Below are positions 5,456 to 63,114 of a stretch of DNA of 64,000 nt, piece by piece. The notes beneath the pieces are model-generated. The model was not told the origin of the DNA. It searched no databases and was given only the letters and a program-made list of their open reading frames with translations. The position numbers were made by a program, and so were the translations under genes. Origin of the DNA: an uncultured Candidatus Saccharibacteria bacterium (GTDB taxonomy: Bacteria; Patescibacteriota; Minisyncoccia; Phycocordibacterales; Phycocordibacteraceae); assembly GCA_964593365.1 (NCBI GenBank), contig CAZQGQ010000002.1, forward strand, positions 85,671 to 149,670, in the 5' to 3' direction. The stretch's first letter is position 1; each line of letters starts with the position of its first letter.

Positions 5456-6643
5456 CTAATCGAGCTTCTTCCAAAGATCCGAATCTTCGCCTCCGTCTAT
5501 CTTGAAGATCGCTACGCCCTTGAGGCCAAGGGACTGCGCAAGGTCGATCTTGTCTTCGATCGCCTCTGCATCGCTCCACCAGACGAGATTGAACTTCACT
5601 TCCTGTCCCGTCTTGTTTGCCTGCGCAAGCGCGCGTGCAGCGACTTCGTTGCCGCTTGCCGTTCCCTTGGGAGCTGAGACAGAAGAGAGGAGACGCGTTC
5701 CGGAGTCGTCAGGGATATACGAGAAGGACAATTCTCCCGCGGAGTTCCGGCTTGGCGTTACATCATATTCATCAGCCGTATCAAGCGCGTACTCAGGATT
5801 CACAGACCAGAGCATGCGGTAGCCCTTGTACCAGTCTGGGGCAACCGTTACTTCTACTTCGCGTCCGTACGTCCCAACGCCAAGCACGATCTTGTCCTTG
5901 CTGATTGTTTGCGCTGTGAAGTTCACGACTTTGCGCACCCACTCAATGTCAGCGAGGGGCATATAGGGTGAGCCCTTTCGTGCGTCGTTAAGCTTCAAGT
6001 CAGCTCGCTGCTGGTCGTAGGTCATGAGGTTCACACGGTCGCAGTACTTGTTGATCTCGACGTAGTCGTTTGCGTACTCAATGACAGGCGGGATAACACG
6101 GTAGAGGGAATCCGGAGGCGTTCGCGCTTCGGTGGTGCAGACAAGCATCTTGCTGCCTAGCGCCGCATCGAGTTCCTTAAGGAACAGGGAGTAGTAGATC
6201 TTTGTGGCTGCCGACTTCCCTTCGTAGTCTATATCGACTCCGTCATACTTTCCTTTCTTGACCAGGTCAGCGATCCGCTTCACGTGATCGGCACGAAGTT
6301 TCGAATCCGAAAGAATCTTCTGGATGTTTACGGTATCGCTCCACATGACGGTAGGAACGACGAGCACCTTCTTTTTCTTGGCGTCCTTCAGAAGTTTGGA
6401 CCAGCTGCTTTTTGTGAGTCCCGCAAGATCCTTGAGGGTGCCGTCTGGCTGCACGCCAATGGCAAACGGGTGGATCATGTCCAGGTCCTTCAAGTTCTTT
6501 TGCGCATCCTTGGTTCCCTTTGAGCCGCTCCAATACGGAATCCAGCCGGAAACTTCGATATCAGCAGCGCGCGCGGAAGGAGCGCCTCCGAGAACGAGAG
6601 CAAGAACGAAAACAAGACTAAGTGATCGAGCAATGAGAGTCAT
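5456..6643 (-). CDS. Glycoside hydrolase family 18 (chitinase-like), secreted
   Basis: GH18 catalytic motif YDGVDIDYEG. I chose the start at MTLIARSLSLVFVLALVLGGAPSARA, a signal peptide (track ORF starts at 6712). A -10 TATACT sits 9 nt upstream of this ATG. Confidence 0.75.
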   Translation of the reverse strand: MTLIARSLSLVFVLALVLGGAPSARAADIEVSGWIPYWSGSKGTKDAQKNLKDLDMIHPFAIGVQPDGTLKDLAGLTKSSWSKLLKDAKKKKVLVVPTVMWSDTVNIQKILSDSKLRADHVKRIADLVKKGKYDGVDIDYEGKSAATKIYYSLFLKELDAALGSKMLVCTTEARTPPDSLYRVIPPVIEYANDYVEINKYCDRVNLMTYDQQRADLKLNDARKGSPYMPLADIEWVRKVVNFTAQTISKDKIVLGVGTYGREVEVTVAPDWYKGYRMLWSVNPEYALDTADEYDVTPSRNSAGELSFSYIPDDSGTRLLSSVSAPKGTASGNEVAARALAQANKTGQEVKFNLVWWSDAEAIEDKIDLAQSLGLKGVAIFKIDGGEDSDLWKKLD

Positions 6644-6684
6644 AGTGTTTCTAGTATAAATAAAATATCGAGTCCGCGCCACTT

Positions 6685-6712
6685 TTGACGCTTGGGGGCG
6701 AGAGCGTATCAT
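6685..6712 (+). promoter_or_regulatory. Sigma70-like promoter TTGACG-N16-TATCAT, -10 located 6 nt before the ATG at 6719 (leaderless)
   Basis: Read directly from the sequence; this is the same -35/-10 architecture that recurs across the window. Confidence 0.45.
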
Positions 6713-6718
6713 TTATGA

Positions 6719-7324
6719 ATGCTTCCAGCGTTCAAGAAACTCTCAACCCCTAAGAAAATCCAAGACTTTCTGGACACCCTTCCCATAAACTACGAGAAGC
6801 AGGGTGAGACTTGCATGAGCCCTTCACATGTCCTCAAAGCAAAGAAGGCGCACTGCCTCGAAGGAGCACTGCTTGCAGCTGCCGCGCTCTGGGCGTACGG
6901 GGAAAGGCCGCTCCTCATGAACCTCAAGTCTGCCAACGGGGACGACGATCACGCAGTTGCCCTGTATCGCATTAATGGCTACTGGGGTGCCATCTCAAAG
7001 ACCAACCATTCATCTCTTCGCTTCCGGGATCCCATATACAAAACCGTCCGCGAGCTCGCTCTCTCCTATTTCCATGAATACTTTGTAAACAAGACAGGTG
7101 CTAAGACTTTGCGTGCGTATTCAGATCCCTTACGTCTCACCCAGTTTGGAAAAGACTGGGTGACAAGTGAGAAGAATCTCTGGGCCATAGCCCACGCCCT
7201 TCGAGATGCTAAGCACCATGCACTCGTACCTGCTACCAATAAAAGGCATATACGAGCTGCAGATAAGATCGAGCGGCGCGCTGGAACGATCATTGAGTGG
7301 AAAAAGAGCGATCCGCGCACCTAA
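6719..7324 (+). CDS. Hypothetical protein, probably a papain-like fold Cys/His enzyme (NAT/transglutaminase-like motif)
   Basis: 201 aa. KKAHCLEGALLAAAAL resembles the catalytic Cys context of arylamine N-acetyltransferases and transglutaminase-like proteases, and a DDDH motif lies downstream. Confidence 0.4.
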   Translation: MLPAFKKLSTPKKIQDFLDTLPINYEKQGETCMSPSHVLKAKKAHCLEGALLAAAALWAYGERPLLMNLKSANGDDDHAVALYRINGYWGAISKTNHSSLRFRDPIYKTVRELALSYFHEYFVNKTGAKTLRAYSDPLRLTQFGKDWVTSEKNLWAIAHALRDAKHHALVPATNKRHIRAADKIERRAGTIIEWKKSDPRT

Positions 7325-7341
7325 AAGTGCCTCGTGCTACC

Positions 7342-8226
7342 ATGGGGCATCGTATGAAGCGGAACACCCAACTAGCAGCCGCCCTAGGAGTACTCATCGT
7401 CATATTGTTTGGGGTTATCTCCTATCTCTACTACCAAAAGACTGTGGCGCTTACCGATACCCGCATTGCCCTTGAAGAGGCAACGACGACATCCGCAATG
7501 CTTCAGGAGAAGCTTCGGACAGAAGAAGCGGAAAGTGACGTTCTTGCGGACGCGCTTCAGGCCGAGAAAGATCGGAACGATGCGTTTGAAGGAAAGATCA
7601 GCGAGATCAGCGGCACTGTGGGCAAGCTCGATAAGCTCTCGAAGATGGATCCTGAGCTTTTGCAGAAATACTCTAAGGTCTACTTCCTCAACGAGAACTA
7701 TGCTCCTTCGGCCCTGGCTACGGTAGATGTTGGCTACCGGTTTAACGAAGAGAAGCTTGAGGAGGTGCATGCACAGATGCTCCCGTTTCTCACTGAGCTT
7801 CTTGAGGATGCAAAAGATGACGACGTTGAGCTTCTCGTCGCCTCTTCCTACCGGTCCTTCGGGCGGCAAGGGGGCCTTAAGGCAAGCTATACGGTCCGGT
7901 ACGGCTCAGGGGCAAACGCTTTCTCCGCCGAGCAAGGATACTCAGAGCACCAGCTCGGGACAGCCATCGATTTCACTACTAAAGACGTGGGAGGCAATTT
8001 CGTAGGGTTTGATGACAGCGAAGCATTTGAATGGCTCACGCATAACGCATATAAATATGGGTTCATACTTTCCTACCCTGAAGGAAACGCGTACTACCAG
8101 TACGAACCGTGGCACTGGCGCTTTGTTGGAGAAGATCTTGCCCGAGACCTGCGGAATGACGATAAGAATTTTTACGACCTGGACCAGCGAGAGATTGATC
8201 CGTACCTGATTGATTTCTTTGATTAA
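7342..8226 (+). CDS. D-alanyl-D-alanine carboxypeptidase, VanY / peptidase M15B family, N-terminal TM anchor
   Basis: M15B motifs SSYRS, QGYSEHQLGTAIDF and EPWHWR. Start chosen at MGHRMKRNT to avoid overlap with the upstream gene (track start 7297). Confidence 0.8.
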   Translation: MGHRMKRNTQLAAALGVLIVILFGVISYLYYQKTVALTDTRIALEEATTTSAMLQEKLRTEEAESDVLADALQAEKDRNDAFEGKISEISGTVGKLDKLSKMDPELLQKYSKVYFLNENYAPSALATVDVGYRFNEEKLEEVHAQMLPFLTELLEDAKDDDVELLVASSYRSFGRQGGLKASYTVRYGSGANAFSAEQGYSEHQLGTAIDFTTKDVGGNFVGFDDSEAFEWLTHNAYKYGFILSYPEGNAYYQYEPWHWRFVGEDLARDLRNDDKNFYDLDQREIDPYLIDFFD

Positions 8227-9897: not shown

Positions 9898-11952
9898 ATG
9901 AGACTTTTCGGCATCACGGTCTCGTACCCCCGCACCAAACGCCACTGGCGATCGGGGGCCCTTCTCATGATCGCTTACATAGCGGCTACTCGCATTTCGA
10001 GCGCCCTATTTGCCGCCCCAGCGATCATCTTCCCCGCTTCAGGCATCGCCCTAGGCGGACTTTTTCTTGAAGGCCTTATCCTCTGGCCGTTTGTCTATTT
10101 CGCCTCCCTTATTGGCTACATCTTGAATGGGTCGACCTTGGTCACGATGGCGGTATTGCCAGTTGCTCACACCCTGCAGGCTGTCCTCGGGGCCTGGCTC
10201 TTGCGCAAGCTCAACGTTGATCCGATCTTCCATCGTCTTCGGGACATGTTTGCAGTGCTTGGCACAAGCCTTGTTCTTGCCATTTTTGTTCCCCTTGTTG
10301 GGATGTTTATCCTTGGCCCGTTGAACCAGCACTTCTACGGCATTGCCCCCTCAAGCGTCACGCTGATCTCGTGGTACACGGGCACCTTGTTCTCACTCCT
10401 CTTTTTTGCTCCGTTTGTGATGCGCTGGCTGTCAAAGCCCTACTTCAATCGGTCATGGTCCGAGATTCTTGAGATTGCAGCGGCCTTTGGCCTTCTCGCT
10501 CTTATCAGCGTGCCGCTCTTTTGGGATGGGGTCGTCGCCGTCTTGAATATCTCGCTCGTCTATTTCTTGCTGGTTCCCTTCTTCTGGATGGCTCTTCGCA
10601 TGGGAACGCGCTTCCTGACGCTTGCGCTTGTCTTCCTTGCGGTCGTCGCGATCTCCGGAACCATGTACGGGATGGGGGCTCCAGGTGCAGAGGATCTTGG
10701 AATGCGGCTCTTTCAGGTGCAGATATTCCTAAACATCATCGCTCTCATCTTTTATGTCCTTGTATCCCTTCAAGACGAGCGAACCATGGCTCAGTCGCTT
10801 CTTATATCCCAAGTGCAAAACCTCCGTGGAGCTCTCGATCAGCTCGCGTCTCAAAACCGTGCAAAAACTGAATTCATCGCCATGCTTGCCCACGAGCTTC
10901 GCAATCCACTGGCTCCTATTGCAAGCGGGATAGATTTACTAAAAGCAAAGGTCTCAGGTGAAGACGCTGGGACGCTCGACGTCATGCATAGCCGTATGCA
11001 GACAGTGAAGCGCCTCCTTGATGATCTTCTGGACGTCTCGCGCATAACTGAGCAAAAGCTCTCGCTTCAAAAAGAAACTGTTGATCTCTCAGCGCTTGCC
11101 CGTCACGCCGCTCTCTCCGCAGATCATTACTTTAAAGAACGCGATCAAACGCTTCTACTTAACCTACCTGATACTCCAGTGCTTATTGAGGCTGACCCGG
11201 TGCGCATTGAGCAAGTGCTCACGAACTTGCTCACGAACGCTTCGAAGTTCTCGAACATGGGCGAGGAAGTCTCCCTTACCGTTCGGCAATCAGGCTCTAT
11301 TGCAGAGGTGCTGGTCGTCGATCAGGGCGTTGGCATTGAGAAAGAAATGATCTCGCGCATCTTCGAACCATTCCTTCAAGTTGAGCTGGGACAACGCACC
11401 CGCCAGGGTCTTGGGATAGGACTTGCGCTGGTACGAAATCTCATTGAGATGCACGGAGGAACCGTAAAAGTGCGTAGCGAAGGGAAAGACAAAGGCAGCC
11501 AGTTCAGCGTTCTGCTGCCTTTGTCTACAGGAAAAGCGCCTGAAGCAAAAATCGTTATCCCCTCCCCTATTTCAGGGTCTGATAAAGCGCCGGGGGCCGG
11601 AAAGAAAGTCCTCGTCGTTGATGATAATGATGCTGCGGCCTGGGGTATTGGGAAACTGTTGGAAATCAAAGGGTATGAAATTGAGTACGCCTATGACGCC
11701 GAACAGGTTTTTGCACGGGTTGAGGAGTTCACGCCCGATGCCATTCTCCTCGACATCGGCCTCCCTGATCAAAGCGGGTATGACGTAGCGAAGACCCTAC
11801 GAGCACAAGGATACGCAGGCACGCTTGTGGCCCTCACCGGCTATAGTGAGGATGACGATCTTGATCGCGCGAAGGAAGTGGGCTTTGACCACCATCTCGT
11901 GAAGCCTGTTGGAATTGCAGAGCTTCGCAAGGTGCTTCCTCGCAACTCCTAG
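9898..11952 (+). CDS. Hybrid sensor histidine kinase (multi-TM sensor domain, HisKA, HATPase_c, C-terminal receiver)
   Basis: H-box AMLAHELRNPLAPI, ATPase G-boxes VVDQGVGIEKE and GLGIGLALV, and a receiver domain KVLVVDDNDAAA...LLDIGLPDQSG...KPV. Confidence 0.85.
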   Translation: MRLFGITVSYPRTKRHWRSGALLMIAYIAATRISSALFAAPAIIFPASGIALGGLFLEGLILWPFVYFASLIGYILNGSTLVTMAVLPVAHTLQAVLGAWLLRKLNVDPIFHRLRDMFAVLGTSLVLAIFVPLVGMFILGPLNQHFYGIAPSSVTLISWYTGTLFSLLFFAPFVMRWLSKPYFNRSWSEILEIAAAFGLLALISVPLFWDGVVAVLNISLVYFLLVPFFWMALRMGTRFLTLALVFLAVVAISGTMYGMGAPGAEDLGMRLFQVQIFLNIIALIFYVLVSLQDERTMAQSLLISQVQNLRGALDQLASQNRAKTEFIAMLAHELRNPLAPIASGIDLLKAKVSGEDAGTLDVMHSRMQTVKRLLDDLLDVSRITEQKLSLQKETVDLSALARHAALSADHYFKERDQTLLLNLPDTPVLIEADPVRIEQVLTNLLTNASKFSNMGEEVSLTVRQSGSIAEVLVVDQGVGIEKEMISRIFEPFLQVELGQRTRQGLGIGLALVRNLIEMHGGTVKVRSEGKDKGSQFSVLLPLSTGKAPEAKIVIPSPISGSDKAPGAGKKVLVVDDNDAAAWGIGKLLEIKGYEIEYAYDAEQVFARVEEFTPDAILLDIGLPDQSGYDVAKTLRAQGYAGTLVALTGYSEDDDLDRAKEVGFDHHLVKPVGIAELRKVLPRNS

Positions 11953-50685: not shown

Positions 50686-51585
50686 CTACTTTCCCGAGCG
50701 GTCGAGCAGTTTCTGGACCGCGGTCGTCACTATGGGGAGCATGTCGTCGTAGAAGTTGAGGTTGATGATGTCTTGGAGCCTAAACCACTTGGCGTCGTCT
50801 AGGCCACCCTTCCCTTCTTCAAGCTTCAGCGGGATGTACTCGGCTTTGGCAAGGAAATACGTCACGTGCTTTCGGAACTTTCCTTTCTCCGGGTGCGAAG
50901 CGACGTATTCGTTCTCTCCGATCACATCCTCAAGGATGATATCGATTCCCATCTCTTCCTTTATTTCCCGCACCGTTCCTGCAGACAGTTCCTCCCCTTC
51001 CCACAAGCGTCCCTTAGAGAGAGTCCAGCGGCCAAACACATCGTGTACCAAGGCAAGGTAATACTGGCCTTCGTGGAAAGAATAGACGACTGCGCCGCCA
51101 AGCTCCTCAACCGGAAGCTCCTTGTGCGGCTTCTTCTCGCGCTTCCCTTGCTCGTCTTTGCCCGGGCTTCCGATTTCCTTATAGACGGCACCAAGCACTC
51201 CGTTAATGAATCGTCCGGATGATTCTCCGCCAAACACCTTGGCAAGCTCAATGGCTTCGTTAATGGCTACTTTAGGTGGAACCTGCGCGCGGTCTGAGAA
51301 CAAAAGCTCGTACAAGCCGATGCGAAGAATGTTGCGGTCGATAGCTGCGATCTTTTCAATGGGCCACTCAGGAGCGGCTTTCGCGATGATAAGGTCGAGA
51401 TCAGTTTTCTTGGCGATCACGCCCGTAAGGAGGTTTTCCATAAACGGCCGATCCGTATCGCTTCCCCCGAACTCTCCGAAGTTTCGCGCAAGCGCCTCGG
51501 GAGCATCGGTATCGGGTACAGCGGCTGTGTCCCACTCGAAGAGCGTTTGTAATACTACCGAACGGGCGAGATGCCGATTAGCCAT
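50686..51585 (-). CDS. nusB: NusB-like antitermination domain fused to a C-terminal NUDIX hydrolase domain
   Basis: The N-terminal approx. 150 aa form a NusB fold (RNILRIGLYELLF...). The C-terminal domain has a complete Nudix box, GRLWEGEELSAGTVREIKEEMGI. Confidence 0.8.
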   Translation of the reverse strand: MANRHLARSVVLQTLFEWDTAAVPDTDAPEALARNFGEFGGSDTDRPFMENLLTGVIAKKTDLDLIIAKAAPEWPIEKIAAIDRNILRIGLYELLFSDRAQVPPKVAINEAIELAKVFGGESSGRFINGVLGAVYKEIGSPGKDEQGKREKKPHKELPVEELGGAVVYSFHEGQYYLALVHDVFGRWTLSKGRLWEGEELSAGTVREIKEEMGIDIILEDVIGENEYVASHPEKGKFRKHVTYFLAKAEYIPLKLEEGKGGLDDAKWFRLQDIINLNFYDDMLPIVTTAVQKLLDRSGK

Positions 51586-56551: not shown

Positions 56552-58303
56552 ATGAACCCAGCATCTAAGGAACTCGAAGCAAAACGCCACACGCTCGCCC
56601 ACCTGCTTGCCGCTGCAGTTATGAAAATGCATCCGGACGCAAAGCGCACCATCGGTCCGGCTATCGACGACGGCTTCTATTTCGACTTCGAGTTTTCAAG
56701 CCCGCTGTCTGAGAAAGACTTCCCCAAGCTTGAGAAGGAAATGCGTCGCCTCCTTCCTTCCTGGAAATCCTTTGAGAAGTTCGACCTCTCCCCTGAACAG
56801 GCAAAGGAGGAGTACCCGGGCAACCCCTACAAGCATGAGCTTATCGACGAGTTTTCAAAAGATGGCGGTACCCTCTCCTTCTACAAATCCGGTGAGTACT
56901 GGGATCTCTGCCGCGGCGGCCACGCCGAGAATCCAGCCAAGGAAATAGCTTCTGACTCATTCAAGCTTGACCGGGTCGCAGGAGCGTATTGGCGAGGCGA
57001 TGAGAAGAACACGATGCTCACCCGTATCTATGCGCTTGCCTTTGATACCAAGGAAGAGCTCGATGCATATATCGCACAACGAGAAGAAGCCAAGAAGCGC
57101 GATCACCGCGAGCTTGGGGAGAAACTCGATCTCTTCCACTTTGACGAGGCCATCGGAAAAGGGCTTCCTATCTGGCTTCCCAAAGGCAACATCATCAAGG
57201 AAGAACTAGAGCGGTGGGCAAAAGATACTGAATCAGAATGGGGCTACGACCGTGTGACAACTCCTATCATCACCAAGGAGGACCTCTTTTACACCTCTGG
57301 TCACCTTCCCCTCTACAAAGAAAGTATGTACGCGCCGATACAGATTGAGGAAGAGACTTACTACATCAAGCCGATGAACTGTCCCTTCCATCACAAGGCG
57401 TATGCCGCTCGACCAAAGAGCTACCGCGATCTTCCTGTGCGCTACGCAGAATATGGATGGTGCCACCGTTTTGAGGATTCCGGCAGCCTGTTCGGCCTTA
57501 TGCGGGTTCGAGGAATGCAGATGAACGATGCGCACATTTATATCCAGAAAGAGAATGCCGTTGAAGAGTTTGTGCGGGTGATTCAATTGCATGAGTACTA
57601 CTACAAAACCCTCGGTATTAAGAACTACGAGATGGAACTCGCACTTCGAGACCCTTCTAAGATGGACAAATACCATGGAGACGAGGAGGACTGGAAGGAT
57701 GCCGAACGGATGACTATCGAAGCTATGGAAAAATCCGGCGTTCCATTCAAGGTGGTCAACGAAGGCGCCGCATTCTACGGACCAAAAATGGACTTCCAAA
57801 TCTACTCTTCTATTGGACGTTCCTTTACTGCCTCGACCAACCAATTGGACTTGTTCATGGGCAAGCGTTTCGGGCTTGAGTATGTAGACGCAGACGGTAC
57901 TCGCAAGACCCCCGCGATCATCCACCGAGCCCCCCTTGGCACTCACGAACGATTTATTGGATTCCTTATTGAGCACTATGGAGGCGCCTTCCCGCTTTGG
58001 CTTGCACCGGTCCAAACGCGCATTCTCCCGGTCTCTGAAAAGCACGCCGCCTACGGTACCGAGCTCTTTACCGCCCTCAAGGCAGCCGGTATTCGCGTAG
58101 AGCTTGATAGCGCAAACGACTCTCTGGGCAAGCGCATACGAAACGCGAAGATGGAAAAGGTTCCCTACCTGCTTGTCGTTGGCGATGCGGAGATAGAGGG
58201 AAAAACGGTCACTGCAGAAAGCAGGGACGGCGGAAAGCTCGAGCCTATGAGCATCGAGGCGTTTATCGAGCGAGCCAAGGAAGAGATCAAGACTCGCGCC
58301 TAA
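56552..58303 (+). CDS. thrS: Threonyl-tRNA synthetase (no N-terminal TGS domain)
   Basis: Starts in the second additional domain (HTLAHLLAAAV). Class II catalytic core and a C-terminal anticodon-binding domain are present. A TATAAT lies 10 nt upstream of the ATG. Confidence 0.9.
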   Translation: MNPASKELEAKRHTLAHLLAAAVMKMHPDAKRTIGPAIDDGFYFDFEFSSPLSEKDFPKLEKEMRRLLPSWKSFEKFDLSPEQAKEEYPGNPYKHELIDEFSKDGGTLSFYKSGEYWDLCRGGHAENPAKEIASDSFKLDRVAGAYWRGDEKNTMLTRIYALAFDTKEELDAYIAQREEAKKRDHRELGEKLDLFHFDEAIGKGLPIWLPKGNIIKEELERWAKDTESEWGYDRVTTPIITKEDLFYTSGHLPLYKESMYAPIQIEEETYYIKPMNCPFHHKAYAARPKSYRDLPVRYAEYGWCHRFEDSGSLFGLMRVRGMQMNDAHIYIQKENAVEEFVRVIQLHEYYYKTLGIKNYEMELALRDPSKMDKYHGDEEDWKDAERMTIEAMEKSGVPFKVVNEGAAFYGPKMDFQIYSSIGRSFTASTNQLDLFMGKRFGLEYVDADGTRKTPAIIHRAPLGTHERFIGFLIEHYGGAFPLWLAPVQTRILPVSEKHAAYGTELFTALKAAGIRVELDSANDSLGKRIRNAKMEKVPYLLVVGDAEIEGKTVTAESRDGGKLEPMSIEAFIERAKEEIKTRA

Positions 58304-58305
58304 GC

Positions 58306-58560
58306 CTACTTCCCTTCCTGGGAGAGCGCTTTCACGATGTCGTCTATCGTGAGCTCGTTGCGGTCCTTTTTGAGCGAACTGAACCCTTCATGGGACGAGT
58401 AGGTCATGCGGGGGCGAGACGCTCTGGTTGGCGGCTGCACGGGACCATGATGCGCGTCTTTCTTCTTGAAGAAGGCCGGGAAGACCTTAAACAGGAGCAC
58501 GTACGCTATGAAGGCGCTCCAGAGCACGAGGCCAAGGATGAAGAGGATGAGTTCGATCAT
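58306..58560 (-). CDS. Small membrane protein, hypothetical
   Basis: 84 aa; an N-terminal TM helix and a charged C-terminal tail. Confidence 0.4.
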   Translation of the reverse strand: MIELILFILGLVLWSAFIAYVLLFKVFPAFFKKKDAHHGPVQPPTRASRPRMTYSSHEGFSSLKKDRNELTIDDIVKALSQEGK

Positions 58561-58634
58561 GGTTTCCTAAAGTATGCCACAGGCAGGTATAGAAAAAGCC
58601 CCAGGTTGTTACCCGGGGCTTTTTCTTCTAGCGC

Positions 58635-60008
58635 TTATGCTCCAAGAGCAAGCTTTGCGCCGCGGATGCCGGTCATGCGGCTTCCTTCGATCATCGCGTC
58701 GATGCGAGAGGCGATACCGTCGGTGTCGCTCACTGCTGCACGAATCTCTGAAAGGAATTCCTCAATGCCCGTACCGTTAGCTGCTGCCGTTCGAAGCTGC
58801 TCGATAACGTTCTCGTTGTCATTGGCTTCAAGGGCCGTGACGAATGCGTTTACGTCTGTTGCAGATTCTTCTTCGGTCTCGTCAGCAAGCTCAGAGTAAG
58901 AAGCGTTTCCTGCGTAGGCTGGGACGAGGGAGCGGAACATGCCCTTTGAGAACATGAAGTACGCTACGCCGCCTGCACCTGCGATAAGAAGCACCCAGTA
59001 CGCCATGATTGCAGGAGAGATGTCTCCAAGACCCGTGTAAGGGATCGAAGAGAGGTAGACGACCTGCGGAGGGTTCTGCGGTGGCTCATCAGTGAAGACG
59101 GTGCTTGAGAACGCATTGTCGTTGTCATCATCGTCCTCATCAACGTTCACCGTAACCGAACAGGTTGCTTCGTCTCCGTCGTTATCTTCTACCGTCATGC
59201 GGAAGGTCGTGTCCTCGTCAACGGTTACGCGCTCTTCGCCGCCGTCCTCGTCAACTGAACCGATACCCTGGTTGATGCTAGCCTCTTCTGCGTCATCGGT
59301 CTCCCATGAGAGTGTTACGCGGTCTCCCTCGTCAACGCTCTTGTCGGAAGCCTCAAGGTCGCAAGATGGCTCGTCATCGTTGTTGTTATCGTTGTCATCA
59401 TCATCGTCGTCATCATCGTTTGAACCGTTGGTGATGTTGATGTTCGAATTGTTGTTCTGATCATCGTCATCATCATTGTTGTTGCTATTGGATCCTGAGT
59501 AGATGCCCGGGCCGCCGACATACTTGTTCTTGTATGCGTAGTCACCGAAGTCAGGGTAATTCTGGTTCTGGTTGGTATTCGTGCTGTTCTCCTGGTTCGT
59601 GTTGTTCTCGTTTGAGATTGCAACGCCGCCGATGTAGTTGTCGTTTCCGTTCTGATTGATGTTGACGTTGTTGTTGTAGGTGGTCTCGTTGTCGTTGTCC
59701 TGCCAGCTAAAGTTGAGGTTAAGGCCGCCTCCATAGCTCGATCCGTAGTTAGAACCCGATCCGTAGTTGTAGGTCGGAGTCTTCGGATAGCTGTAGGTGG
59801 GCTTGTACCCTCCGTAGCTACCGCAACACGAAGTCGTGCCGTAGATCGTGCCAGCGCTTGAGTAGCCGCTGCCACTTCCGTAGCTGCCACCAAGATCGTA
59901 CGTGCTGTACGCAAGAGCAGCAGACGGGATGGCAAAGCCAACACCGACGACCACCGCGATCACTGCAAGAACCTTTGCGAACCCATTGCCCGTGATGTTT
60001 TGTTTCAT
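58635..60008 (-). CDS. Surface protein with extreme low-complexity regions, an acidic Cys-bracketed domain, a TM helix and a C-terminal cytoplasmic tail
   Basis: A signal peptide is followed by G/S/Y-rich, N/Q-rich and poly-D tracts. An approx. 75-aa domain runs from CDLEASDKSVDEGDRVTLSWE to ATCSVTVNVDED. Then comes IPYTG plus a TM helix, with about 100 aa C-terminal to it. Confidence 0.6.
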   Translation of the reverse strand: MKQNITGNGFAKVLAVIAVVVGVGFAIPSAALAYSTYDLGGSYGSGSGYSSAGTIYGTTSCCGSYGGYKPTYSYPKTPTYNYGSGSNYGSSYGGGLNLNFSWQDNDNETTYNNNVNINQNGNDNYIGGVAISNENNTNQENSTNTNQNQNYPDFGDYAYKNKYVGGPGIYSGSNSNNNDDDDDQNNNSNINITNGSNDDDDDDDDNDNNNDDEPSCDLEASDKSVDEGDRVTLSWETDDAEEASINQGIGSVDEDGGEERVTVDEDTTFRMTVEDNDGDEATCSVTVNVDEDDDDNDNAFSSTVFTDEPPQNPPQVVYLSSIPYTGLGDISPAIMAYWVLLIAGAGGVAYFMFSKGMFRSLVPAYAGNASYSELADETEEESATDVNAFVTALEANDNENVIEQLRTAAANGTGIEEFLSEIRAAVSDTDGIASRIDAMIEGSRMTGIRGAKLALGA

Positions 60009-60069
60009 GTTTGAGTAATTTAGAAAGTAATTAAGCCTTTATTTTGTGCCACCTACGGGACAAACCCAT

Positions 60070-60097
60070 AGATACCAGTAGATTAGCACAAGGCAAT
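60070..60097 (-). promoter_or_regulatory. Sigma70-like promoter TTGACA-N16-TAATCT for the surface-protein gene
   Basis: Read on the minus strand. Confidence 0.45.
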
Positions 60098-60104
60098 ACT
60101 TTGT

Positions 60105-60127
60105 CAAGCCCTACCAAAAAACCGCCC
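60105..60127 (-). terminator. Intrinsic terminator after gene 60168..61262
   Basis: On the minus strand, gaccgccucagggcgguc is followed by UUUUUU. Confidence 0.7.
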
Positions 60128-60167
60128 TGAGGCGGTCATTTGGCAGTATCTATCTCCTTTTGGGAGG

Positions 60168-61262
60168 TTAGCGTCGGTCTCGAATCTGAGGCCAATCGCG
60201 TCCAGAGAGCGTATGTGTGCCGTCCTGGAGCGATTCCCAACGAACAAGGGCGGGTGCGTAGCTAATGCCACGGCGGCGCTCTTCTGCGGTTGGAACTGGG
60301 CAGATAACCACCCATCCGCGCTTGTCGGCATCGAGCATCGGAACTGAGATGGATCCGTTTTGTCCTTGGACAAACGCAGCATATGTTTCCATTCCAATAT
60401 CTGCGCCTGCAACGTCACGGATACCAAGCTGGCGTCGGTTTCGCTGAATAACATCAAAGGCAGCGCGACGAGGGTCGCAGGCGTCCCCGATGCAAAGGAG
60501 CGTTGATGGCTCAACATCTGGCCAGCACACGTCTGCGATCGTCGCTGATGCTGATTCGTCGGTAGGAACTACCGCTCCGACCACGAAGAAGCCGCGGTTT
60601 GGCATTCCCTCGATGACGATGTCTGCACATTCAACCTGAGGACGAGGCGTTTCAGGAGTTGGGACGTTCTCAAGGGTCAAGAACTGGACAGCGATGTTGT
60701 TGCAGATCTCAAGGTGCGTGAAGATAGCGACCTTGCTTGGATCAGCCTCATTTCGAACTACCCAGCGTTCAGCCTCAAGCATGGTGCCGAGGTGGGTATC
60801 CTCTCCCCGAGCTGGGGTTCGCACGACTCCGCGCCGAAGATCGAGGTTCACTCGACCGCCTTCGTTTACGAGAGCCTGGCGTCCACCGCTGGTGGAAATT
60901 GGACCCTGCGTCATGAGGTCGAATCGCTCGCCGTTAGGATCAAGCGTGTCCGGGTCTACTCCCTGAATGAGGGCAGTATCGAAGTTTGATGGTCCTTCGA
61001 TGATGCGGCGAGCCTGGGCAGACATAGCTGCGTCAAACCACGCTGGATGGCGTGCGCCTTCAAACATGGTGACTGCCTCTGCTTTGGTACCTCGGTACGG
61101 ATTGTCTCGGAGATATTCCAAAGTAACTGCCCCGCGCTCTGCTTCTTGCACACGCTCCTGAGCTGCTGCTGGAGTAGTAGTCGCAGCTTCTGCAGCACCA
61201 AGACCAATTGCTGCGGCAGCCATTGCTCTCCAATTAAATCCTCCTGGTTCTTTGCGGGCCAT
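60168..61262 (-). CDS. Secreted hypothetical protein
   Basis: 364 aa with an Ala-rich signal-like N-terminus. Several Cys pairs are present but no recognisable motif. Confidence 0.5.
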   Translation of the reverse strand: MARKEPGGFNWRAMAAAAIGLGAAEAATTTPAAAQERVQEAERGAVTLEYLRDNPYRGTKAEAVTMFEGARHPAWFDAAMSAQARRIIEGPSNFDTALIQGVDPDTLDPNGERFDLMTQGPISTSGGRQALVNEGGRVNLDLRRGVVRTPARGEDTHLGTMLEAERWVVRNEADPSKVAIFTHLEICNNIAVQFLTLENVPTPETPRPQVECADIVIEGMPNRGFFVVGAVVPTDESASATIADVCWPDVEPSTLLCIGDACDPRRAAFDVIQRNRRQLGIRDVAGADIGMETYAAFVQGQNGSISVPMLDADKRGWVVICPVPTAEERRRGISYAPALVRWESLQDGTHTLSGRDWPQIRDRR

Positions 61263-61309
61263 ATTTGTAAGGTTAGTTATTAGGGTATGCCACTTGGAAT
61301 GATACAGGA

Positions 61310-62008
61310 CTATGTCCCGTTTCCAAGGGCCTCGGTTGAATAAAGCTTCGCAGTCACGATGAAGCGGTCTGACTTTGCCCCGAAGGTGTCGCAGGTAGCG
61401 AGCGTGAGCTTCGAGCCTGAGACATCGAGCGGAATCTCGCCGCTTTCTGTGTTTGACTGCTCCACCGTTTCTACGGCGTAGGTATAGGCCTTATCTTTGC
61501 CATACACCGTGATCAGGTCCCCTTCCTTGAGGTTCTGGATCCCGTTGAAGGCCTTATAGGCCTGGTTATGGACCACTGGCAGGTAGCTTGAGTGCCCGAA
61601 GATAAGCACGTTTCCTTCAGCCCCGAGCGTTCCGGTTCCTGGGTAGCGGACAGCCCCCGTAAGCAAGGCTTGGTCGAGCGCGCTGATGCGGGTGGTGTTT
61701 GGGTTTGAGACGTTAGCCTCGACGCCTATCGCAGGGATCTTGATACGAACTGGGAGCTCCCCTTCTGCAACGAGCGCGACTGCTGGAGTCTCAGGTTCGG
61801 CAACTATTGGTGCGTTAGTTGGCATCTGACTAAAAGCAGCAAAGGATGACGGGATCATGCCGATACCAGAGAGCGTCTGGAACGAAAGCAAAAAGATAAG
61901 TGCAAAAAAGAAAAGGAAGCTCCACTTATGGGCGAGCACTTCCTCTACAGGGGTTTTTGCAGGCGCTGCGTGATGCGCGTTACTCATAGAAATACTATAC
62001 CACAGCAA
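61310..62008 (-). CDS. Sortase-family transpeptidase
   Basis: N-terminal TM helix. Catalytic His in VLIFGHS, catalytic Cys in LTLATCDT, and a conserved Arg (RFIVTAKL). Confidence 0.8.
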   Translation of the reverse strand: MLWYSISMSNAHHAAPAKTPVEEVLAHKWSFLFFFALIFLLSFQTLSGIGMIPSSFAAFSQMPTNAPIVAEPETPAVALVAEGELPVRIKIPAIGVEANVSNPNTTRISALDQALLTGAVRYPGTGTLGAEGNVLIFGHSSYLPVVHNQAYKAFNGIQNLKEGDLITVYGKDKAYTYAVETVEQSNTESGEIPLDVSGSKLTLATCDTFGAKSDRFIVTAKLYSTEALGNGT

Positions 62009-62080
62009 ATATGCTTCTTGTCAACCCCCGTTTCCCCTTTGTCTTGACAAAAGTATTGGGTATGGGGTAGATTACCGGGA

Positions 62081-63067
62081 ATGGAAACACCTTCATCCCA
62101 CGAGCAGCACACCCCGAGCCGGAAGGCTGCGGTTAACGGCCTCGCCGTTGTTGGCGTCATCGCGCTTGTCGTTGGCGGTATCTTGCTTGTCGTCTACGCA
62201 GCCCGCTACATTCCTGAGACCCTCTCTCGCCTCGCGGGTGCCGTGTACCTCTCCCCTGAAGAGACCGTAAACCCTGAAGATGAAGAAACCCCGGTAGAGA
62301 CACCTGAAACCCCAGAAACACCGGTGACTCCAACCACACCAGGTACAACATCTACACCCGCAGTTAATCCTCCTGTTAAGACAACTCCAGGTGGAGTCAT
62401 TACGGTTCCTCGCGCCCTCACCGGCTCCCCTGACCTTCAGCCTGAGATTCTTGCGCTTGGGTACCTCCAGAACAATTCGGCAAACTCGTTTGTCACGGCA
62501 AACGATCTTTCGGCAAACGATCGTCCTGCGATCCGCTTCCGTGTCCGCAACGTTGGAACAAACGCAGTGAACTACTGGCAAGTGCGCGTGGAGTATCCTA
62601 CCGAAGACAGCCAGGATTCATACGTCATCACCTCTCGCGACCTTCTTATGCCAGGCGGCTATAAGGACTTTACATTTGGATTTGATAATCCTGACGAAGG
62701 AAGCGACCGCCTCTTTGTCGTTACTGCAGATCCAGGTAATGGCGTTCGTGAAAGCAACGAAGGCAACAATCGCGACTCTGCATCTATCGACATCGGCCGC
62801 ACAAGTGGCTCAAACAACAACTCAAGCCGACTCGCTTGCGATCTTAGTGTCTCTCCAAGCCGCATTGACGAGGGAGAGCGAGCTACTCTTCGCTGGGAAG
62901 CTGATGGCGCTGATGATGCACGAATCAATGAGGGCATCGGCTCAGTCGACGAGGATGAAGGCTCTGAACGTGTCTCCCCTCGCGAAGACACCACGTATCG
63001 CCTGACGGTTGAGAATGACGACGATACTGAGACCTGTTCAGTAACGCTTCGCGTTGACGAAGACTAA
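62081..63067 (+). CDS. Membrane-anchored surface protein with a CARDB-like domain and a C-terminal acidic Cys-bracketed domain (paralogous to that in 58635..60008)
   Basis: N-terminal signal anchor, an ETPETPETP linker, and a CARDB-like region (RFRVRNVGTNAVNYWQVRV). The C-terminal domain runs from CDLSVSPSRIDEGERATLRWE to TCSVTLRVDED. Confidence 0.6.
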   Translation: METPSSHEQHTPSRKAAVNGLAVVGVIALVVGGILLVVYAARYIPETLSRLAGAVYLSPEETVNPEDEETPVETPETPETPVTPTTPGTTSTPAVNPPVKTTPGGVITVPRALTGSPDLQPEILALGYLQNNSANSFVTANDLSANDRPAIRFRVRNVGTNAVNYWQVRVEYPTEDSQDSYVITSRDLLMPGGYKDFTFGFDNPDEGSDRLFVVTADPGNGVRESNEGNNRDSASIDIGRTSGSNNNSSRLACDLSVSPSRIDEGERATLRWEADGADDARINEGIGSVDEDEGSERVSPREDTTYRLTVENDDDTETCSVTLRVDED

Positions 63068-63085
63068 GAGACATTTCTTACGAAG

Positions 63086-63114
63086 AGCGCCCGGTTTATG
63101 CCGGGCGTTTTTCT
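63086..63114 (+). terminator. Intrinsic terminator
   Basis: gcgcccgg-tttatg-ccgggcg followed by ttttt. Confidence 0.7.

Follow-up and report, generated by a model that had tools for sequence, protein, structure and literature searches.

A Conserved Sortase Locus with a Predicted Dedicated PYTG Substrate in Patescibacteria

Introduction

Sortases of the housekeeping kind (class A, and class E of Actinobacteria) belong to Pfam family PF04203, carry a His/Cys/Arg catalytic triad and an N-terminal membrane anchor, and serve many dispersed substrates; proteins of the LPXTG/LAXTG type (TIGR01167) combine a signal peptide with an [LI]PxTG motif, a hydrophobic helix, and basic residues. The class GN sortase of marine proteobacteria (TIGR03784) is instead dedicated to a single target protein, which it adjoins. 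The Candidate Phyla Radiation (CPR), or Patescibacteria, accounts for a large part of bacterial diversity, and an attached life on other cells is presumed for most of its members. Here we describe a sortase locus at positions 58306–63067 of a 64,000-nucleotide stretch of DNA, referred to as the window, from an uncultured Candidatus Saccharibacteria bacterium (assembly GCA_964593365.1, contig CAZQGQ010000002.1, positions 85,671–149,670). We consider it probable that this locus represents a sortase module confined to one lineage, the Paceibacteria (Patescibacteria/CPR), in which it is inherited vertically and paired with a dedicated substrate, the ectodomain of which would be anchored to the cell wall. 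Sortases have been reported to be enriched in CPR bacteria (PMC6744442), and the searchable literature on sortases and PYTG signals of CPR, Patescibacteria, and Parcubacteria yielded general statements of this kind and no description of the signal, tail, module, or substrates discussed here.

Other described systems are close to parts of the locus. In Streptococcus gordonii, as outlined in PMC11326707, the membrane remnant of an LPXTG adhesin, the C-peptide, is sensed by the SGO_1180 two-component system, a precedent for a functional membrane remnant after sortase cleavage. PKD and other bacterial immunoglobulin (Ig)-like repeats, such as PF22352, ColG/ColH, and Rib, are sandwiches of 7–8 strands and ~75 amino acids (aa) that form tandem arrays in secreted proteins. 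The Pam pili of CPR bacteria, reported mainly in Saccharimonadia and Microgenomatia, are assembled by donor-strand exchange with chaperones (bioRxiv 10.64898/2026.03.03.709456).

The window locus shares the family, triad, and anchor of the housekeeping sortases and the order of elements of their substrates, but no curated class fits its sortase, the signal is an extended and nearly invariant VYLSQ[IL]PYTGL[DE]LGP, one adjacent substrate takes the place of many dispersed ones, and in most members 100–340 conserved cytoplasmic residues lie past the helix. Like the class GN system, it retains a single sortase beside a presumed single target in a small accessory operon; unlike that system, it belongs to another phylum, has Ig-like repeats rather than a vWA target, and includes CARDB and Cys-rich accessory genes. 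In contrast to the S. gordonii remnant, which in the outline given there is about 30 aa long and sensed by a kinase, the corresponding fragment would comprise a conserved cytoplasmic domain of 100–300 aa that is partly encoded by a separate gene, and we saw no kinase link. The Ig-like domain of the locus resembles PKD-type domains in its sandwich, its tandem arrays, and its occurrence in secreted proteins, and is set apart by a sub-cutoff score against PF22352, an invariant pair of bracketing cysteines, and an aspartate plus glutamate (D+E) content of 31–35% in the window's clade. As with the Pam pili, a conserved operon may specify a CPR-specific surface structure of Ig-like folds, with a sortase instead of donor-strand exchange.

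Results

Gene content and conservation of the module

We interpret the locus as a five-part module present in ~70 species of Patescibacteria/Paceibacteria, which on sequence evidence comprises a CARDB protein, a sortase, a middle protein, a PYTG substrate, and a segment made up of a transmembrane (TM) helix, a DIVKGLS motif, and a helical tail. In the window, the CARDB membrane protein (328 aa; 62081–63067, plus strand) is transcribed divergently from the sortase (61310–62008, minus strand; PF04203). Downstream of the sortase on the minus strand lie a 364-aa open reading frame (ORF) at 60168–61262, called by the Joint Genome Institute (JGI) as 351 aa with a start at 61226, the substrate precursor (457 aa in the ORF list; 58635–60008), and a small membrane protein of 84 aa (58306–58560), which falls within the region treated in a preliminary description of the window and went undiscussed there.

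A scan with the sortase alignment as query and one genome per species returned 79 loci, in ~65 of which the sortase is 40–65% identical to that of the window; the taxonomic labels of the sortase loci are nearly all Patescibacteria, Paceibacteria, Parcubacteria, Kaiserbacteria, or Adlerbacteria, which places the window among CPR bacteria of the Paceibacteria type. Hidden Markov models (HMMs) of the components were built from the locus proteins and applied to the 71 loci with an orthologous sortase, the window's own included. The CARDB neighbor was found in 63 of these, the middle family in 42, and a downstream protein with PYTG and a TM helix in 56, and most loci without the full module are cut by contig ends; the linkage to surface proteins that the preliminary description saw in one genome thus recurs in relatives. 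In three metagenomic contigs with orthologs of the 457-aa protein, the genes run CARDB protein, sortase, variable ORF(s), substrate, small TM protein, ThrRS, and DnaE, and when the substrate rather than the sortase was the starting point, a sortase was adjacent at four of the five places that were informative. The module's neighborhood, GyrB ... ThrRS-DnaE-RNaseHII, is conserved too, which argues that the module is old and vertically inherited.

Individual loci depart from this layout. In Adlerbacteria-type loci (L041, L045, L048, and L056) the sortase lies between two PYTG proteins; both are made up of Tyr/Gly/Asp/Ser/Thr-rich low-complexity sequence and are devoid of the Cys-bracketed domain described below. 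A ParE/Phd toxin–antitoxin pair lies between GyrB and the CARDB gene in one relative (L087:3886-4522), and a diversity-generating retroelement, composed of bAvd and a reverse transcriptase, lies ~8 kb from the module in another (L001:16444-17827) and is absent from the window.

The sortase and the sorting signal

The sortase scores 73.6 bits on PF04203 (cutoff 26.6, E = 1.6e-20), has an N-terminal membrane anchor, and retains H139 (FGHSS), C206 (TLATC), and R215 (numbered on a 232-aa form), all three invariant in four orthologs. The sortase-linked surface-protein cluster of the preliminary description stands. Its true start is likely the ATG at 61987, which gives 225 aa as in the JGI call. The closest solved structure is Bacillus anthracis SrtA (2kw8, E = 1.2e-12), in an alignment that spans the catalytic motifs.

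The substrate precursor has a signal peptide (aa 1–33), a G/S/Y/N/D low-complexity region (aa ~34–213; 59370–59909, minus strand, as are all coordinates of this protein), an acidic Cys-bracketed Ig-like domain (aa 215–292; 59133–59366) followed by a linker, an IPYTG motif (aa 322–326; 59031–59045), a TM helix (aa ~333–353; 58950–59012), and a cytoplasmic helical tail (aa 354–457; 58638–58949). AlphaFold2 models of this protein consist of a β-sandwich with a predicted local distance difference test score (pLDDT) of ~88, a disordered linker and motif, a TM helix, and a helical bundle of pLDDT ~90. The low-complexity region is as unusual as first described, with 19% N, 14% G, 10% S, 9% Y, and runs of poly-D. 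Its few lysines (59780–59800, aa ~69–77) stand in Tyr/Pro contexts (GYKPTYSYPKTPTY); a comparison with P0002, P0006, and P0007 shows KPVY or YKP repeats in some orthologs and no lysine in others, and these residues, which bear on a possible isopeptide nucleophile, are not conserved. Orthologs of the same architecture (P0001–P0008) were recovered from other metagenomes.

An alignment of 60 sorting signals gives the consensus xVYLSQ[IL]PYTGL[DE]LGP, after which come a hydrophobic helix and basic residues. The proline, threonine, and glycine are present in 60/60 signals, the tyrosine in 58/60, and a leucine at position −3 in 59/60; the first position of the motif is I, L, V, or M, and the spacing between PxTG and the helix that follows is constant. 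For the window protein, the hydrophobic segment directly after IPYTG is AIMAYWVLLIAGAGGVAYFMF, which AlphaFold2 models as a helix at model residues 120–142. The candidate site for sortase cleavage and transpeptidation lies in the window-type stretch VVYLSSIPYTGLGD, and the peptide that covers the sorting signal is VVYLSSIPYTGLGDIS, with a predicted cut after Thr325.

The preliminary description judged IPYTG not to be a classical sorting signal. This holds for the tail, given that 104 residues follow the TM helix where a classical anchor would have a short basic C-terminus, and does not hold for the motif. Six orthologs (P0004, P0005, L008, L009, L011, and L015) have only 33–35 aa after the glycine and tails of the KRR type, and P0005 (16.8 bits), L008 (20.0), and L015 (19.6) pass the TIGR01167 cutoff of 15.9 bits; the window signal aligns column by column with these short-tailed orthologs. 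Given the invariant PxTG and the homologous short-tailed orthologs that pass TIGR01167, IPYTG is best read as the cognate signal of the sortase, homologous to true LPXTG anchors. A separate observation concerns the CARDB protein, where AVYLS directly follows the TM helix (aa ~50–56; family consensus sAVylss, moderately conserved). VYLS also precedes IPYTG in the substrates (59046–59060 in the window), a resemblance that could be chance or a shared element recognized by the sortase.

The cytoplasmic tail and the 84-aa gene

Most relatives have 230–340 residues after PYTG, and most family members have 100–340 conserved cytoplasmic residues past the helix. The long form of the tail consists of a conserved TM helix, a motif SSYEGFKSFA..GALTIDDIVKGLSRE (EGF..DIVKGLSRE), and a C-terminal helical domain of ~110 aa that ends in GVTGAKLALTRAL. 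The helical domain, which is confined to the C-terminus of PYTG proteins, has a mean column identity of 52% across distant loci, and a profile search against the sequences of the PDB found nothing (best E = 0.28). Weak NCBIfam matches of a relative's tail to holA/dnaX (E 0.01–0.07) were treated as noise. The ~100-aa tail of the window protein, modeled by AlphaFold2 as a confident helical bundle, aligns as a shortened version of this domain (hhalign probability 94%, E = 1.4e-7). More widely, a PYTG + TM signal was seen in 88 of the 144 best further cluster representatives, and the tails of these 88 range from 35 to 355 aa; long cytoplasmic tails are therefore the rule in the substrate family, and a long conserved tail is its ancestral state. 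A second tail module (RAH..VL.S.DAL ... EDGW.[IV]NK.R) occurs in other lineages, carried by P0017, P0023, P0025, and P0036 and at L058, L061, and L063; P0032 has this module and the helical C-terminal domain together.

The 84-aa protein consists of an N-terminal TM helix, a basic stretch, and the sequence HEGFSSL..ELTIDDIVKALSQE. In HMM comparisons it aligns over its full length to the first two parts of the long-form tail, beginning ~6 residues after the PYTG glycine. The family is encoded by a separate gene in 16 loci, all from the clade with acidic domains to which the window belongs, and is fused within the substrate tail in 28 others. Because the small protein matches the segment directly after PYTG in long-form substrates, we propose that it is a product of gene fission from the ancestral tail and a member of the module. 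A break ~6 residues past the glycine would be expected if the sortase separates the two halves in any case.

An acidic version of a widespread Cys-bracketed domain

Two proteins of the locus share a 77-aa domain, at 59133–59366 (minus strand) in the substrate and at 62834–63064 (plus strand) in the CARDB protein. BLASTP aligns the copies with 61% identity over 85 aa (E = 6e-29), and the consensus given in the preliminary description agrees with their alignment. The nucleotide identity put there at ~70% was measured at 66.2% at the codon level, with 63.6% aa identity. The view that the copies are old paralogs under selection is supported by a ratio of nonsynonymous to synonymous rates (dN/dS) of ~0.12, with dS saturated at 2.2; the view that their differences are mostly synonymous is only half right, as 22 codons are identical, 27 differ synonymously, and 28 nonsynonymously.

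No Pfam or NCBIfam model for this domain was found in library searches, in keeping with the preliminary description, which did not recognize a named domain. PF22352 (K319L-like_PKD) reaches 16 bits on the window domain against a cutoff of 27 (E = 0.012), and relatives in the repeat family give sub-threshold PKD matches in Pfam, with at most 29 bits for PF22352. The AlphaFold2 model of the domain is an Ig-like β-sandwich (residues 1–80, pLDDT ~88), for which Foldseek returns SoxYZ, α2-macroglobulin MG, ColG/ColH PKD-like, and Rib domains with a probability of 1.0 and a target-normalized TM-score of 0.45–0.65. These models favor an Ig-like sandwich, the fold that had first been offered as a guess.

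The domain is not a peculiarity of this locus and is instead an acidified version of a widespread CPR repeat. With a profile of the domain and signal, 7,907 cluster representatives were recovered at E ≤ 1e-3, 775 of them also at E ≤ 1e-30, with up to 47 repeats per protein in this set and 1–15 tandem repeats in relatives from sortase loci. The bracketing Cys pair is kept in 166 of 166 full-length copies from related loci. CPR bacteria have been reported to carry wall-anchored thiol-disulfide oxidoreductases together with VKOR (PMC6744442), which makes extracellular disulfide formation plausible. In typical relatives the domain is Thr/Ser-rich with 1–14% D+E, and only in the window's clade is it acidic (21–36%; 31–35% in each window copy). 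This clade is further characterized by only one or two remaining domains, an N-terminal region rich in Tyr/Gly/Ser/Asp/Asn, the fission of the tail, and the addition of a domain copy to the CARDB protein. We ruled out a halophile-type acidic proteome, since the housekeeping ORFs of the window are not acidic (median isoelectric point 5.6, 14% D+E); acidity is therefore a property of the surface module. One Kaiserbacteria substrate (L027:7852-10653) has dockerin type I/EF-hand-like calcium-binding inserts (PF00404, E = 2.9e-13) at aa 274–324 and ~420–460, between Cys-bracketed repeats.

The CARDB and middle-family proteins

The 328-aa protein begins with a signal-anchor helix (aa ~19–41) and the AVYLS motif, followed by a P/T/E-rich linker, a CARDB domain (PF07705, aa 136–231; 62486–62773; 41.8 bits against 22.7, E = 1.4e-10), and, at its C-terminus, the acidic Cys-bracketed Ig-like domain, an extra copy found only in the window's sub-clade. 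Apart from this CARDB match and that of the sortase, Pfam returned no hit over threshold for any protein of the locus.

The 364-aa protein is predicted to be secreted and contains cysteines, and a single-sequence search returned only the protein itself. Most loci encode between sortase and substrate a secreted, Cys-containing protein of 280–450 aa, and these proteins form one family. A profile of 28 members matches the 364-aa protein (E = 3.7e-10, 31 bits, HMM positions 18–286 of 319), and the match takes in the NPY..EA and ICNN motifs as well as conserved cysteines; we accordingly assign it, by profile homology, as a probable divergent member of this conserved middle family rather than an isolated secreted protein. 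Profile searches found no relative of the middle family in Pfam or the PDB, and a profile search of a word-indexed database with the family alignment returned three proteins, low-complexity candidates having swamped it. An AlphaFold2 model of the 364-aa protein from a 17-row alignment is poor (pLDDT 55), and Foldseek found nothing significant for it, the top matches being streptococcal pilins (E = 0.05, TM-score 0.18). We propose that the CARDB and 364-aa proteins contribute, as conserved accessory components, to the envelope structure to which the substrate belongs.

Genomic setting

The window is part of the core chromosome, encoding RpoB/RpoC, RpoD, DnaG, SMC, ribonucleotide reductase, HisRS, ThrRS, DnaE, and a VanY D-Ala-D-Ala carboxypeptidase, the last of which (7297–8226, plus strand) implies a peptidoglycan wall. 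A GH18 (chitinase-like) glycoside hydrolase at 5456–6712 (minus strand) could act on the cell's own glycans or on those of a host. The 4.8-kb region of the module is 100% identical between contigs of two JGI samples, and Tandem Repeats Finder detected in it only a short run of GAY codons and no long tandem repeats; both results exclude the mis-assembly of the low-complexity ORF that was raised as a concern in the preliminary description.

Pattern searches place a terminator-like hairpin with a T-run between the 364-aa and substrate genes (60120–60137, minus strand) and one of 14 pairs directly 3′ of the CARDB gene (63082–63113, plus strand); these are pattern matches only, and the number of such sites does not exceed the expectation from shuffled sequence. 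At 9898–11952 (plus strand) lies a hybrid histidine kinase that joins a MASE1 membrane sensor domain to a C-terminal receiver domain, a kind of regulator that is unusual in a small CPR genome. A NusB-NUDIX fusion protein (50686–51585, minus strand) is also fused in the related contigs L002, L003, and L004. The ThrRS of the window has 583 aa (56552–58303), compared with 412–413 aa in L001:9069-10310 and L002:5130-6368, where the short forms are without the N-terminal editing/SAD region.

Discussion

Building on gene content, homology, synteny, motif invariance, and folds, we infer a path of export, cleavage, and anchoring for the substrate. The 457-aa precursor would be exported via Sec, as its signal peptide suggests, and held in the membrane by the helix after IPYTG. 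The adjacent membrane-anchored sortase (His139/Cys206/Arg215) would then cut between threonine and glycine and join the ectodomain to an amine of the cell wall, most likely that of lipid II or peptidoglycan if the housekeeping sortases are a guide. In the wall-linked product, which might serve in adhesion or, as a speculation of the preliminary description, in episymbiotic contact, the acidic disulfide-bracketed Ig-like domain would lie near the wall and the Tyr/Gly/Ser/Asn/Asp-rich region would point outward, whereas the leftover G-LGDISP-TM-helical tail would stay in the membrane with its tail facing the cytoplasm.

Several points weigh against this anchoring model. Cleavage at IPYTG and the nature of the acceptor are both predictions. 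All NCBIfam models for sortase classes A–F and GN score below their cutoffs on the window enzyme, the best being class E (49.8 bits against 160), with class GN at 22.5 against 158. TIGR01167 matches neither the window protein nor its isolated signal, a failure that we attribute to the ~104 residues that follow the helix. At L085 (GCA_002773395.1), the substrate has no sortase or CARDB gene within 8 kb; at that locus the substrate and a truncated middle-family ORF adjoin ThrRS, with D-Ala-D-Ala ligase and UvrC upstream. A strongly conserved cytoplasmic domain, moreover, fits an uncleaved bitopic membrane protein equally well.

Such a protein would act as a receptor or anchor, its ectodomain Ig-like and its conserved cytoplasmic domain devoted to signaling or scaffolding; PYTG would then be a structural juxtamembrane element, and the sortase would serve other targets. 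The missed LPXTG anchor model, the solitary substrate at L085, and a tail that is long and better conserved than the ectodomain speak for this explanation. We nonetheless regard it as unlikely, given that neither PxTG nor its distance to the following helix varies, that orthologs with classical short basic tails pass TIGR01167, that linkage to the sortase is tight over ~55 species, and that the segment after the site has been split into its own gene ~6 residues past the glycine. Less probable still is a sortase-assembled pilus or fiber, the structure suggested in the preliminary description, in which the 457-aa protein would be polymerized through lysine isopeptides and the 364-aa and CARDB proteins would perhaps form the tip or base. 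The would-be subunits do contain Ig-like domains, two PYTG proteins surround the sortase in Adlerbacteria-type loci, and the low-complexity region of the window protein and of some orthologs includes a YPK tripeptide and KP-Tyr repeats, but YPK occurs there once, that region is lysine-free in P0001 and P0003–P0005, and no pilin lysine is conserved. Only one protein with a sorting signal is encoded in the 64-kb window, the 364-aa and CARDB proteins being without one; the class C sortase model is far under its cutoff (28.9 against 160 bits), and the 1–15 tandem Ig repeats of relatives are typical of wall-anchored stalk proteins rather than pilins. The streptococcal pilins that head the Foldseek hits of the 364-aa protein add little, with E ≥ 0.05 and a TM-score of 0.18 on a model of pLDDT 55. 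An artefact, whether a mis-assembled or non-coding low-complexity ORF or a spurious 364-aa ORF, might be suspected from the extreme composition of the former and the lack of single-sequence homologs of the latter; we consider it highly improbable in view of the identical contigs from two samples, the lack of long tandem repeats, the orthologs of the same architecture in other metagenomes, and the fit of the 364-aa ORF to its family profile over nearly its full length.

Within the wall-anchoring model, the conserved tail invites a further and more tentative proposal, namely that one substrate gene yields two products: a wall-anchored Ig-like ectodomain and a released, membrane-tethered cytoplasmic protein, composed of the TM helix, the DIVKGLS motif, and the helical domain, with a function of its own. 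The splitting of a tail segment into its own gene is our argument that the fragment left after cleavage can be an independent membrane protein. If this is correct, the released fragment may, for example, report or organize the display of surface proteins from inside the cell, the window's clade would be a natural fission experiment in which the 84-aa gene reveals the autonomy of the fragment, and the sortase would act as a pro-protein convertase that couples extracellular and intracellular structures.

What is new in this system is the extended invariant signal, the conserved cytoplasmic tail, and the idea of two products; the core enzymology is familiar. The analysis also delineates three unannotated families, the Cys-bracketed repeat, the Cys-rich middle protein, and the cytoplasmic tail with its small-protein form, from which profiles can be seeded to annotate the CPR surface proteins that, in their thousands, are now labeled hypothetical. 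For the envelope biology of Paceibacteria, the module is a tangible starting point, with a predicted sorting signal that could be tested with peptides.

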